Source: an archaeon (GTDB lineage Archaea > EX4484-52 > B79-G9). From it: DNA of 12,509 nucleotides. The stretch is taken from the NCBI GenBank assembly GCA_043813875.1, contig JBDRKP010000065.1, positions 1 to 12,509 on the forward strand, written 5' to 3'. Within the stretch, counting starts at the first letter, position 1. Each line of letters starts with the position of its first letter. The position numbers were made by a program. Positions 3,001 to 6,000 of this stretch are shown piece after piece.

Positions 3001-6000
3001 CAGACCTTGCTGTTGAAGATCACCACATGATAGAGGATGTGGCTATCGTGCTTGCGGAGGCGCTTCTTAAGGCTACGGGAGAACGGAAAGGCATAAACAG
3101 GATAGGCTATTCGATACTTCCTATGGATGATGCGGTCGTCATGGTGTCGATTGATCTTTCGAGGTCGTATTTCCAGCAGAGGGGCATCGCATTTTCGAAA
3201 GAGAAGTTCGGGAGCCTGTCTACTGAGAATATAGCGCCTTTTTTTGAGAGTCTTGCGCTCAATGCGAAGATGACGCTTTATATGAACAAGATTGAGGGAA
3301 CAAATGACCACCACATCGCTGAGGCGTGCTTCAAGGCGCTCGGATGCGCGCTCAAGATGGCGGTAGCGAAGGATGAAAGAATGCGTGATGCGCTGAGCAC
3401 GAAGGGTGTCTTATGATGGTATCTGCCAAAAAATCGGTTTTAGGGATGAAGGAATATGTCCCACCAACGGCCAAGAGAAGAGGTATGCTTAGGCTTGACT
3501 TCAATGAGAATACGCGGGGGTGTTCGCCTAAGGTACTTGCCGCGCTCAAGGAGATCAAGGCAGATGATGTGTCCATATATCCGGATTACTCGGGTGTCTC
3601 CAAGATGATCGCCGGATATGTCGGGAACGGGATTGTGAGTGAACAGACAATGATCACAAACGGGAGCGATGAGGCAATCAAGTGTATCATGGATACTTAT
3701 GTCGAGTGCGGGGATGAGGTCGTGATGGCTGTGCCGACGTTTGACATATTCAGGGTGTATGCGACTGTCGCAGGGGCAAAGATTGTCGGTGTGCCTTATG
3801 GTGATGATATGGAGTTCCCGCTGGATGAGGTAGTATCTTCCATCAATGAGAGGACTAAGGTGGTGGTGATTGTGAATCCGAACAATCCTACCGGAACTGC
3901 CGTATCGAGGGAGGGGATACTGAAGGTCGTGAAGAAGGCAAAGGATTCTGTTGTCCTTATCGATGAGGCATATCTAGAGTATTACGGGGAGACGTGCGCT
4001 GATCTTGTCGCTATTTATGACAATGTATTTGTCATACGGACATTCTCCAAGGCGTTCGGGCTTGCGGGGCTAAGGATCGGGTATGTCCTGTCGGATGAGC
4101 GCAATATCGCATCACTGCTCAAGGTGAGGTCGCCTTACAGCATAGGGGCGGATGCGTGCATAGCGGTGGGTGCTGCGCTTGATGATGTTGATTTTGTCAG
4201 GGATTATGCGCGCGAGGTCAAAAAGAGCAGGAAGATGCTTTTTTTGGGGCTTTCCAGGCTCGGCGTCAAATGTTATCCGTCGTCTGCCAATTTTGTGCTT
4301 GCGGATTTCGGAAAGGATGCGGATTATGTGTGGAAGGAGCTTTTTTTGAATAACATCCTTACAAGAAGGTGGCCAATGAATGAGAGGCTCAAGAATTGTA
4401 TCAGGATAGGGGCAGGAACTTCTGAGGAGGCGGAGAAGGTGCTTTTGATTGTTGAGGCAGCGCTTTCTAAAAAGGAGGCGTTCATATTTGATGTAGACGG
4501 AGTGCTTGTCGACGTGTCCGGGTCTTACAGGCGGGCGGTGAAGGAGACGTGCGAGTTTTTCCTCAAAAGCGAGGTCACGGCGGATGAGATACAGAAGGTG
4601 AAGAATTCGGGCGGGTGCAATAATGACTGGGATCTTTCTATGAAAATCATCTCTCTGCGATGGAAAAATGTTCTGCGCGAGAATATAGTGTCAAAGTTCC
4701 AGGAGCTTTACATGAAGTACAGAAAGGATGAGAGATGGCTGATTTCACGGGATGTGATCGACGGGCTATCAAAGAGGTACAGGCTTGGAATCTTTAGCGG
4801 GAGGCCTCGAGAGGAATTGATTTTTGCTCTCCGTGAGTCCGGGATGGAGAAGTATTTCAATGCTGTCGTTGCCATGGAGGATGTGCCTGTGTCCAAGGGG
4901 AAGCCTGAGCCTTTCGGGTTGAAGCTTGCGCTTCGGATGCTCGGGTGCTCGAAGGGGTTCTATGCAGGGGATACTGTCGATGATGTCATGGCTGCAAAGG
5001 GCGCAGGGCTTGTGGCTGTCGGCGTGCTTGCCCCGCTGGACAAGTCGGATGAACTGAAAGGTATGCTGGTCTCTTTCGGGGCGGATTTTGTGGTGGATGA
5101 TGTCAATGACGTGTTAAACATTAATGGGGCGGTTTAGATGGAAGTATGCGTCGTTGATTACGGAGGAGGGAATGTCAGGAGCCTGTGCAATGCGCTTGAG
5201 TTTCTGGGCGCGGAGTATATATTGAGCGATGATGCGGAATATGTGCGCAATTCGGGCGTGCTTATGCTCCCGGGTGTCGGGAGTTTCGGTGCAGTCATGA
5301 ATGGCCTTGTGAAGAAGGGGCTTGATTCGGCTGTTGTCGATGCGATCGGGGCGGGGGCGAGGTTTTTTGGGATCTGCGTCGGTATGCAGGTGCTTTTCTT
5401 TGGGAGCGATGAGAGCCCGGGGGTCCCGGGGCTTTCGGTGATTGATGGAGATGTGGTCAGGTTCAACCGGGGGAAGGTGCCGCAGATCGGATGGAATACC
5501 ATCAGGACTTTGAATGAGGGTGTTTTTTTGGACGGGTATGTTTATTTTGTGAATTCATATTATTGCGTGCCGAGGGATATGGGGGTTGCCGCGTGCTTAA
5601 CGGAGTATGGGGGATTGAATTTCTGTAGCGCTTTGAGGCGCGGGAATGTCTATGCGACGCAGTTCCACCCGGAAAAGAGCGGATGGCTCGGGCTTGAGAT
5701 CATCAGGAGGTGGCTTTATGATCGCTAAGAGGATCGTGCCGTGCCTTGATATGAAGGACGGGAAGGTCGTGAAGGGAGTAGGTTTTGATAATCTTCGGGA
5801 TGCCGGGGATCCTGTAGTGCTTGCGCGGAAGTATTATGAAGACGGGGCAGATGAGATTGTCTTTCTTGATATCAGCGCGTCTACTGATAAAAGGGATATC
5901 CTGATCGATGTAGTTTCCAGGACGGCTTCTGAGATATTCATACCATTCACTGTCGGGGGAGGGGTGAGGAGCGTCTCTGACATTTCACGGATACTTGCGA

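Follow-up and report, generated by a model that had tools for sequence, protein, structure and literature searches.

A histidinol-phosphate aminotransferase fused to a predicted HAD-IA histidinol-phosphate phosphatase in an archaeal histidine operon

The window – the whole 12,509-nucleotide stretch of archaeal DNA analysed here – carries a histidine operon in the order hisG-hisD-hisB-hisC::HAD-hisH-hisF-hisA::hisIE-hisS, in which hisB encodes imidazoleglycerol-phosphate dehydratase (IGPD) only (Table 1). The hisC start overlaps the hisB stop in an ATGA motif, and the hisH ATG abuts the stop of the fusion gene. The true start of hisF is probably near the hisH stop, downstream of the longest-ORF start, because the Pfam match opens at residue 29 of the longest ORF. 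The three Pfam families of the hisA::hisIE product recur together in all 119 other clusters among the matches listed. A 115-aa ORF 5′ of hisG has no match to a Pfam or NCBIfam family, and a tRNA scan found no tRNA gene.

Table 1. Coordinates of the histidine genes in the window and of the domains and motifs within the fusion gene; fractions are counts of relatives in the 240-sequence HAD alignment described in the text.
Feature	Position (nt)	Strand	Evidence and remarks
hisG	705-1547	+	Pfam HisG and HisG_C
hisD	1552-2838	+	Histidinol_dh, 2.4e-160
hisB, imidazoleglycerol-phosphate dehydratase without N-terminal HisN domain	2835..3416	+	193 aa; PF00475 at 30-173; monofunctional HisB NCBIfam models
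hisC::HAD fusion gene (P0001)	3413..5137	+	574 aa; ORF listing and translation, Pfam/NCBIfam domains, AF2 model
HisC domain, PLP-dependent histidinol-phosphate aminotransferase	3413..4468	+	residues 1-352; TIGR01141
Invariant Ser-Lys, S212-K213	4046-4051	+	alignment of 106 fusions
HAD-IA phosphatase domain, predicted histidinol-phosphate phosphatase	4475..5134	+	residues 355-574; HAD_2, Hydrolase, hhalign
HAD motif I, F359-D360-V-D362-G363 (predicted nucleophile Asp and general acid/base Asp)	4487..4501	+	D360 234/240, D362 239/240, G363 239/240
Cap fingerprint region, Y372, R373, V376, I393, K397, D405, W406	4526..4630	+	alignment, BLASTP, hhalign
HAD motif II, S462-G463-R464	4796..4804	+	T 231/240, G 239/240, R 240/240
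HAD motif III, K497-P498	4901..4906	+	K 240/240, P 240/240
HAD motif IV, G519-D520-x-x-D523-D524 (predicted Mg2+ ligands)	4967..4984	+	G 240/240, D520 239/240, D523 237/240, D524 240/240
hisH	5138-5728	+	GATase
hisF	end 6482, longest ORF from 5646	+	His_biosynth, 4.3e-82
hisA::hisIE, three-domain fusion	6528..7799	+	423 aa; His_biosynth 1-219, PRA-CH 252-324, PRA-PH 338-420
hisS, histidyl-tRNA synthetase, final gene of the cluster	7777..9087	+	tRNA-synt_His and HGTP_anticodon

The fusion gene begins with ATG and has no internal stops, and Pfam places Aminotran_1_2 at residues 25-343 (2e-51), followed by HAD_2 at 358-538 (6e-17), Hydrolase at 355-532 and Hydrolase_like at 496-566. There is next to no linker between the two domains; in the AF2 model of the full-length protein (pLDDT 92.5, pTM 0.86) the final helix of HisC, residues 337-352, is predicted to lead directly into the first HAD strand at 355-359. 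Three relatives from the same phylum also carry both domains on one ORF, of 574-578 aa, and so the fusion is not an assembly artefact. A first-pass annotation of this DNA had listed the same genes in the same order and had described HisC with a C-terminal HAD-IA domain on one 574-aa chain; Pfam annotation of the window returned identical genes, and the ORF, its translation, Pfam and NCBIfam all agree with the chain as described.

The HisC domain scores 284.8 bits against the TIGR01141 hisC model over residues 7-348, passing the equivalog cut-off of 276.55, and the fusion is the sole protein in the genome to do so. Y56, N157, D184, Y187, S212, K213, R221 and R331 are unvarying in 106 aligned fusions, and we take K213 to be the PLP (Schiff-base) lysine.

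Conservation in the HAD domain was counted in an alignment of 240 sequences, comprising 120 fusions and 120 stand-alone homologues. Motifs I-IV are all present, each conserved in 231-240 of the 240 relatives, with Ser at position 462 of motif II where most relatives have Thr. In the AF2 model of the domain (pLDDT 94.3) an all-helical cap is predicted at domain residues 20-106, between strands 6-10 and 107-112, as in HAD subfamily IA (C1 cap), and the domain exceeds the cut-off of the HAD-IA model TIGR01549 (45.5 bits against 23.3). It is not of the HisB-N 'DDDD' type, scoring 22.9 bits with TIGR01656 against a cut-off of 84.15.

By far the best NCBIfam family is TIGR01548 (HAD-SF-IA-hyp1), a 'hypothetical equivalog' model with no function attached. 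The isolated domain scores 124.7 bits and the full protein 121.2, both short of the cut-off of 140.2, which relatives from Halovenus (214.8) and Bathyarchaeia (160) do reach; a protein of the nmHisN type, discussed below, scores 80, and TIGR01548 is its only NCBIfam match at E<=1e-10. A Foldseek search with the HAD model returned generic HAD-IA phosphatases – 3kbb first, with beta-phosphoglucomutases and CbbY, and 6iah (Tt82), a moderate match, at rank 21 with a TM score of 0.65 – and therefore the substrate cannot be deduced from the fold alone. Clusters in the ESM Atlas are likewise named generically, as HAD or 'phosphoglycolate phosphatase'.

For comparison with nmHisN (Nmar_1556 of Nitrosopumilus maritimus), a characterised archaeal histidinol-phosphate phosphatase (HolPase), we used stand-ins: proteins that match its published position, size and fingerprint, rather than nmHisN's own sequence. 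They come from 301 sampled genomes of the phylum to which a Bathyarchaeia metagenome-assembled genome belongs, and are the 29 best TIGR01548 loci once the centre genome's own copy is set aside. At 27 of these the order is hisD/hisG-hisC-[HAD ~305-330 aa]-hisB-hisH, and one more is cut before hisB; the hisC-X-hisB position and this size are those published for nmHisN by Kinateder et al. (2024; PMC10804674, section 2.3.1 and supplement). The stand-ins also carry the published nmHisN residues and spacing, I20-Y24-D25-I28...I52-K56-E64. BLASTP aligns the HAD domain end-to-end with one stand-in (E 8e-13, 22% identity), and hhalign of the family profile (A1) against a profile of thaumarchaeal hisC-X-hisB stand-ins (A2) gives a probability of 99.9% and an E-value of 1.8e-34 over 229 aligned columns.

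The fingerprint of nmHisN can be read across residue by residue in these alignments. Y372 corresponds to Y24 (Tyr in 232/240), K397 to K56, where toHisN has Arg (Lys in 235/240), and D405 to E64, where toHisN has Asp (Asp in 237/240), eight residues after the lysine as in nmHisN. The hydrophobic accessory positions I28 and I52 are taken by V376 (Ile or Val in 235/240) and I393 (Ile or Val in 234/240), and W406 is kept in 239 relatives. The exception is R373, opposite D25, with Arg in 232 of the 240. An alanine scan described in section 2.3.2 of PMC10804674 found that the nmHisN cap residues determine turnover of histidinol phosphate (HolP). In the same passages the Y/R/K/D pattern belongs to Euryarchaeota cluster II and to delta-proteobacterial clusters of the nmHisN similarity network; HolPase activity of such Y-R variants was predicted there from the sequence logo alone and judged likely but 'less reliable', no assay of one being reported.

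Judged by sequence, the HAD domain is homologous to nmHisN and toHisN, archaeal HolPases that have been characterised experimentally, belongs to the same HAD lineage as they do, and is best described as a shorter-capped 'Y-R-K-D' variant. The first-pass annotation had foreseen this as a caveat, which the hhalign, BLASTP and fingerprint comparisons with the stand-ins bear out. Its reading of the domain as the HolPase, with the product of the attached HisC domain as substrate, keeps its functional half, which draws on homology, fingerprint, gene context and further fusions; its claim to have found a 'missing' enzyme is weakened because the domain is a homologue of known HolPases, and what is new is therefore the fusion and the wider distribution of a known kind of enzyme.

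Each of the 119 other clusters listed (identity 42-88%, coverage 93-100%) has both aminotransferase and HAD Pfam families, and 14 of them are HisG-HisC-HAD proteins of 757-793 aa. Sources, where named, comprise Woese-, Nano-, Aenigm- and Micrarchaeota plus a single KSB1 bacterium, and the 21 source-named clusters are called histidinol-phosphate transaminase or aminotransferase throughout, one as COG0079 only; the cluster listing thus agrees with the earlier account of numbers, names and sources. Among the best 150 representatives, all at E<=1e-30, 89 are HisC-HAD and two (P0328 and P0349) are HisC-HAD-IGPD. The text of PMC10804674 mentions no fused form and no member from DPANN, Acidobacteriota or Melainabacteria; a term search of it had no hits for aminotransferase, DPANN or Nanoarchaeota. 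New here are the HisC-HAD fusion in more than 100 clusters, the HisG-HisC-HAD and HisC-HAD-IGPD forms, and stand-alone HAD copies within his clusters, mostly between hisC and hisB.

Gene context was sampled at 80 genome loci with a relative. At 12 of these the HAD domain is fused to HisC; at 34, mostly from Acidobacteriota, it stands alone within a his cluster, mostly as hisC-HAD-hisB with a monofunctional hisB; and at three it lies near a HisC-like gene only. Within the phylum of the window (42 genomes) a his operon occurs in four genomes, each with the fusion inside the operon. Five genomes with a family member outside his clusters hold one full-length member each, four with Trp, Gln or His at position 373 and one with Arg, and TIGR01261 matches are equally sub-threshold in genomes with and without an in-operon HAD copy. 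The Y-R variant gains independent genomic support as a HolPase from the HisC fusion, the HisC-HAD-IGPD triples and the hisC-HAD-hisB order.

We therefore consider the HAD domain a well supported, predicted HolPase on the grounds of homology, fingerprint, gene context and further fusions, and the gene as encoding, with a probability of roughly 0.85, a bifunctional enzyme that catalyses histidine biosynthesis steps 7 and 8. The family is not uniform in its surroundings: no his gene lies closer than 8 kb to 31 of the 80 loci, and it thus need not have a single specificity. Also weighing against the assignment are the TIGR01548 score under its cut-off, an identity of just 22% to the stand-ins, a cap much shorter than that of nmHisN, and Foldseek matches to a generic HAD-IA fold. 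The 31 loci, together with the naming of stand-alone relatives as 'TIGR01548 family HAD hydrolase', 'phosphoglycolate phosphatase' or plain 'HAD hydrolase', and the next-best NCBIfam matches to PpaX and phosphoglycolate phosphatase (45-60 bits, far under their cut-offs), would fit a domain serving another substrate – say phosphoglycolate, some sugar phosphate or a damaged metabolite – with its link to HisC unrelated to the HolP step. Tt82, the nearest solved structure by sequence, is also reported to have diverse substrate specificity itself. We regard such a role as improbable, given that the partner or flanking genes are specifically hisC and hisB at 46 of the 80 loci, that HisC-HAD-IGPD triples exist, and that the cap residues governing HolP turnover in nmHisN are conserved. 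nmHisN itself hydrolysed none of nine other phosphate esters, according to PMC10804674.

The statement in the first-pass annotation that the operon encodes no other HolPase type holds for the window, but the genome does contain two IMPase-family genes and one PHP-domain gene outside it. No HisB-N was found in the genome (no TIGR01261 match); at 91.5% completeness such absences are not proven. The only PHP protein is CehA/McbA-like and scores 35 bits with the hisJ model against a cut-off of 90. If the real HolPase were instead the better of the two IMPase-family candidates, a 256-aa protein on contig C77, the HAD domain would be redundant or have a side function; the best NCBIfam match of this protein is indeed TIGR02067 (his_9_HisN; 178 bits, E 2e-52), and HolPases of the IMPase type are an established class in Actinobacteria and plants (abstract of PMC5516325). 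That score falls short of the equivalog cut-off of 275.15, however, and inositol monophosphatase and FBPase/IMPase models score alike; the neighbours are MgtC and PmbA/TldD, with no adjacent his genes. Homologues at E<=1e-20 occur in four genomes of the phylum (G016, G022, G024 and G030), which all lack a his operon, but not in the three other fusion-bearing genomes, so that there is no co-variation with the operon, and we consider this protein very unlikely to be the HolPase. We give hardly any credence to a catalytically dead HAD domain that regulates or scaffolds HisC, perhaps as a binding site for histidinol phosphate or histidine: nothing specific supports it, and the aspartates of motifs I and IV and the lysine of motif III are kept in 234-240 of the 240 relatives.

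On the preferred reading of a bifunctional aminotransferase-phosphatase, the HisC domain would use PLP and glutamate to convert imidazole-acetol phosphate to L-histidinol phosphate, presumably the substrate of the HAD domain, which would dephosphorylate it to L-histidinol for HisD. By the usual HAD mechanism Asp360 would attack the phosphate to give an aspartyl-phosphate intermediate, Asp362 would act as general acid/base, and the phosphate would be held by S462, K497 and the Mg2+ ligands D520 and D524. The helical cap (~368-455) would shut over the site and choose the imidazole-bearing substrate through Y372, R373, K397 and D405, with V376 and I393 packed behind them. The alanine scan of nmHisN is the source, by analogy, of these single-residue roles, and a kinetic advantage from fusing HisC and HAD would likewise be presumptive.

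Among the steps of histidine synthesis, the HolPase reaction most often goes unassigned. Passages of PMC13759103 give hisN as the commonest remaining gap in GapMind 2026 (42 of 208 prototrophs), and passages of PMC10804674 report the HolPase as unannotated in two thirds of histidine-producing archaea, both as cited in the first-pass annotation; a 2021 survey found no HolPase in Rhodothermota with its probes (PMC8305728, passages). As a tentative extension, for which we claim somewhat less than even odds, the short-capped Y-R-K-D HAD may be the principal unrecognised HolPase of many lineages, closing a sizeable share of these hisN gaps, and may have been fused repeatedly to HisC because histidinol phosphate would be passed straight from the PLP site to that of the phosphatase. 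Candidate lineages are DPANN, Bathyarchaeia, haloarchaea, Melainabacteria, CPR Microgenomates, Aminicenantes, Acidobacteriota and Rhodothermota, with the enzyme joined to HisC, set between HisC and IGPD on one chain (HisC-HAD-IGPD), or carried as a separate gene between hisC and hisB.

Confirmed HolPase activity would allow the step to be assigned in DPANN archaea and several bacterial phyla, Rhodothermota among them, and genomes bearing the gene should then not be scored as histidine auxotrophs for a missing hisN. The fusions are now named just 'histidinol-phosphate transaminase'. The gene is a novel architecture for a kind of enzyme already known, and its interest lies mainly at the level of annotation, without a new biochemical principle.

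Several known systems help to place the fusion. nmHisN resembles the HAD domain in its single helical cap after motif I, in its fingerprint of Tyr, Lys and an acidic residue with two hydrophobic accessory positions, and in being encoded directly after hisC. It differs in being a free protein of 35.6 kDa with nine cap helices, whereas the domain here is fused to HisC and has ~225 aa with ~5 cap helices in the predicted model; Arg replaces D25 and Asp replaces E64, and identity to the stand-ins is 22%. toHisN of Thermococcus onnurineus (Lee et al. 2008, cited in PMC10804674) has Asp at the E64 position, as here. By sequence, the PDB entry that matches best (E 2e-11) is 6iah, Tt82 of T. thioreducens, presumably an orthologue of toHisN. 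In the printed alignment it has Y-D opposite Y372-R373 and R...D opposite K397...D405, which fits the YDRD of toHisN. Both are stand-alone, with a seven-helix cap and Asp at position 25, in contrast to the fused domain with R373. Closer in fingerprint are Cluster II and also the clusters of delta-proteobacteria, with the same Tyr, Arg, Lys and Asp and with Ile at the accessory positions, and three haloarchaeal relatives (L090-L092) with the pattern Y-R-[IV]-[IT]-K-D-W; L091, the one of them run against TIGR01548, clears its cut-off with 214.8 bits.

Two more distant HolPases provide parallels. paHisN (PA0335 of Pseudomonas aeruginosa) is a HAD-superfamily HolPase that was recognised late, having been annotated as another phosphatase; by its description in PMC10804674 neither its caps nor its fingerprint (D16-D18-Y47) are related, and it arose independently. 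E. coli HisB (HisNB), a bifunctional HolPase and IGP dehydratase, likewise couples a HAD-superfamily HolPase to a nearby enzyme of histidine synthesis, and P0328 and P0349 also hold a HolPase-IGPD junction like its own. It belongs to another HAD subfamily, the 'DDDD' HisB-N type (TIGR01261/TIGR01656), and differs in its partner: E. coli HisB joins steps 6 and 8, whereas fusion to HisC joins two consecutive steps.

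The his operon is compact, with all genes on the + strand (ORF listing, Pfam and NCBIfam; see table) and with tight junctions: the hisB stop overlaps the hisC start, and the hisC::HAD stop abuts the hisH start. A HisC-HAD fusion had been proposed here by a first-pass annotation, and it is borne out by the ORF, Pfam, TIGR01141 and gene order. The fusion protein (P0001) has an aminotransferase class I/II domain (Pfam, residues 25-343), passes the HisC equivalog TIGR01141 (284.8 bits against a cut-off of 276.55), and matches HAD_2 (358-538), Hydrolase (355-532) and Hydrolase_like (496-566). 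The top NCBIfam family of the HAD domain is TIGR01548, a HAD-IA 'hypothetical equivalog' model without assigned function, at 124.7 bits and below its cut-off of 140.2; other NCBIfam families reach at most 60 bits. The solved structure closest in sequence is 6iah (E 2e-11), labelled in the fold search as the Thermococcus thioreducens phosphatase Tt82. Modelled by AF2 (pLDDT 94.3), the domain has a Rossmann-like core and one helical cap after motif I, and Foldseek returns generic HAD-IA enzymes only. In the full-length AF2 model (pLDDT 92.5, pTM 0.86) the last HisC helix (337-352) leads into the first HAD strand (355-359), and the two domains are rigidly joined because only two residues lie between these elements.

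Positions of the his genes in the window and of orphan his genes in relatives
Feature	Location	Position	Strand	Basis
hisG	window	705-1547	+	Pfam/NCBIfam
hisD	window	1552-2838	+	Pfam/NCBIfam
hisB, 193 aa, IGPD only	window	2835-3416	+	Pfam/NCBIfam
hisC::HAD, 574 aa (P0001)	window	3413-5137	+	Pfam/NCBIfam
hisH	window	5138-5728	+	Pfam/NCBIfam
hisF	window	end at 6482	+	Pfam/NCBIfam
hisA::hisIE, three domains, 423 aa	window	6528-7799	+	His_biosynth + PRA-CH + PRA-PH
hisS	window	7777-9087	+	Pfam/NCBIfam
orphan hisD+hisS	L104 (G038:C73)	6496-9101		
orphan hisD+hisS	L106 (G007:C45)	3-1962		
orphan hisD	L103 (G031:C8)	9483-10736		
orphan IGPD	L147 (G017:C79)	1733-2410		

The operon also encodes hisA::hisIE, a single protein with three activities; the same three Pfam families occur in each of the 119 other clusters listed (400-434 aa), under source names that give just HisIE or HisA, and the fusion recurs at an archaeal locus (L021) and in Brocadiaceae (L063). 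Upstream of hisG, and sharing 4 bases with its start, is a 115-aa ORF (361-708, +) that has no Pfam or NCBIfam match and may not be a real gene. GC skew on the operon coding strand is strongly positive (0.19-0.36 per kb), and its GC of 0.50 falls in the top ~1% of the genome's 8-kb windows. Directly past hisS, on the - strand (9092-11569), are a tyrosine integrase (325 aa) and a GmrSD_N + HNH protein (448 aa); GC is 0.29-0.32 in 1-kb windows of 10001-12000 and 0.34 across 9088-12509, compared with 0.50 in the operon and 0.438 genome-wide, and the region resembles a mobile or defence island that has inserted here. The 12,509-nt window has no tRNA gene.

The genome comprises 1.64 Mb in 90 contigs and is 91.5% complete. 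It is archaeal, carrying ribosomal protein L31e, which was otherwise matched just in the four archaeal control genomes. Its phylum comprises 42 genomes of one order, with HisD in 10 and IGPD in five. A his operon is present only in G000, G004, G018 and G020, and all four contain the fusion within it. Three relatives have an orphan hisD, in two of them with hisS directly downstream, and a fourth has an orphan IGPD; no further his gene was found around these loci (up to ~10 kb each side, contig permitting), and they may be relics of an operon since lost, or point to histidinol salvage.

Of two IMPase genes in the genome, the better competing candidate for the phosphatase step is located on contig C77 (256 aa). 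Its top model is HisN (TIGR02067), but it scores 178 bits against a cut-off of 275, and its gene is flanked by MgtC and PmbA/TldD genes; homologues (E<=1e-20) are present in four further members of the phylum, all of them lacking a his operon, and none was found in the three other fusion genomes. The second IMPase gene sits among sugar-phosphate genes. The sole PHP protein (216 aa, CehA/McbA-like) scores 35 bits for hisJ against a cut-off of 90, and no HisB-N was found in the genome.

The first-pass annotation's database statements were reproduced: HisC and HAD domains occur together in every one of the 119 other clusters listed, 14 add HisG, and the 21 source names given are just histidinol-phosphate transaminase/aminotransferase or COG0079. 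A representative search over 1.84 billion proteins gave 4982 matches at E<=1e-3 and 152 at E<=1e-30, and the best 150 were classed: 89 are HisC-HAD, 56 HAD only (including fragments), two HisC-HAD-IGPD (Pfam-confirmed), at least one HisG-HisC-HAD (with HisG found by Pfam in at least one further protein), one HAD-HAD and one HisC-HisC-HAD. The HisC-HAD-IGPD proteins (P0328 and P0349, 742-762 aa) place three successive steps on one chain, and HisG-HisC-HAD (757-793 aa; P0054, P0345 and the 14 listed clusters) joins the first step to steps 7 and 8. On a quick tree with the nmHisN type as root, the fused state requires three changes (well-supported branches only) to five, and the window's HAD domain groups as sister to that of the fusion in a genome of the same genus.

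Genomic context was examined at the 80 best loci of a scan of 3 of 64 parts of the genome collection, annotated with the window's own His proteins. Twelve carry the fusion (four Gastranaerophilales, one Iainarchaeum, two Aminicenantes, and one each of Myxococcota, Brocadiaceae and Microgenomates, with two unclassified bacteria), 34 hold an unfused HAD copy inside a his cluster, three have one near a HisC-like gene only, and the remaining 31 lack any his gene within 8 kb. Acidobacteriota typically show the order hisIE-hisG-hisD-hisC-HAD-hisB-hisH-hisF-hisA, with hisB of monofunctional size. At a Woesearchaeota locus (L087, 6840-8330), hisC (to 7904) and HAD (from 7986, truncated at the contig end) are separate neighbouring frames, so that unfused pairs occur within DPANN too. 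Arg is present at position 373 in 39/46 his-linked and 8/31 unlinked copies, and the full Y-R-[IV]-[IV]-K-D in 33/46 and 5/31, counts that are descriptive and carry no test because the genomes are related. A single acidobacterial subclade, in which position 373 is W, Q or H, accounts for most of the unlinked copies. This clade (24 rows of the tree, a subset of L042-L093) consists of Terriglobales/Acidoferrales-type MAGs with copies outside his clusters, also has T, A or G at 376, and provides the sole full-length family member in 4/4 genomes checked.

A specific HolPase of HAD type has been described by Kinateder et al. 2024 (PMC10804674): Nmar_1556, named nmHisN (35.6 kDa), is encoded between hisC and hisB in Nitrosopumilus maritimus, has a kcat/KM of ~1e4 M-1 s-1, is inactive on nine other phosphate esters, and was related by the authors to toHisN, an enzyme known earlier from T. 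onnurineus. As stand-ins we used proteins matching its published position, size and fingerprint, rather than its own sequence. Scanning with a profile of the window's HAD family (A1) led to a Bathyarchaeia MAG, and 301 genomes of its phylum were then searched with TIGR01548. All 29 best loci (excluding the centre genome's copy) have a ~305-330-aa HAD protein directly after hisC, in agreement with nmHisN in position and size; the order is hisD-hisC-HAD-hisB-hisH in 27, hisG replaces hisD upstream in two, and one locus reaches its contig end before hisB. Their N-terminal regions read S-Y-D-x-x-I, then I-x-x-F-K and G-G-F-N-D-E, and several have exactly the published spacing (Y, +1 D, +4 I, +28 I, +32 K, +40 E). 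The window's HAD domain aligns over its full length with one such protein (BLASTP E 8e-13, 22% identity), and profile comparison of A1 (108 sequences) with A2, built from 26 of these proteins, gives 99.9% probability (E 1.8e-34). For the nmHisN-type protein, too, TIGR01548 is the sole NCBIfam match at E<=1e-10 (80 bits).

We consider the HAD domain a predicted HolPase acting on the HisC product, a well-supported reading with a probability of roughly 85%. The HisC domain would produce histidinol phosphate, the HAD domain would hydrolyse it via an Asp360 phospho-enzyme, and cap residues would select the substrate; channelling between the two sites is possible. The earlier proposal is well supported as to function, and weakened as to a missing enzyme, the domain being a homologue of the nmHisN family. 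We found no mention of the fusion in open-access papers or bioRxiv. The curated databases of GapMind 2026 (PMC13759103) date from November 2023, and its main text mentions neither Kinateder nor 'haloacid', so this family may account for some of its 42 hisN gaps. According to passages of a 2021 survey (PMC8305728), PHP-type and DDDD-type probes revealed no HolPase in Rhodothermota; two Rhodothermales loci (L031, L036) have a Y-R-type member.

In nmHisN, alanine scanning identified Y24, D25, K56 and E64 as the fingerprint of the cap and I28 and I52 as accessory residues; the fingerprint of toHisN is Y-D-R-D (PMC10804674). These positions map to Y372 (Y24), R373 (D25), V376 (I28), I393 (I52), K397 (K56) and D405 (E64), and the fingerprint residues are kept in 232-237 of 240 relatives (120 fusions and 120 stand-alone), in which W406 and the four catalytic motifs are likewise conserved. 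The haloarchaeal relatives recovered share the Y-R-K-D pattern, and the one that was scanned (L091, Halovenus) lies above the TIGR01548 cut-off. Conserved Arg at position 25 marks a large Euryarchaeota cluster and two delta-proteobacterial clusters, classed by the authors as probable but 'less reliable' HolPases (PMC10804674), and Y-R-K-D is the fingerprint of their cluster II. The predicted HolPase role of this Y-R variant gains genomic support from the fusions; the kind of enzyme is already known, and what is new is the fusion architecture and the wider range of the HolPase family.
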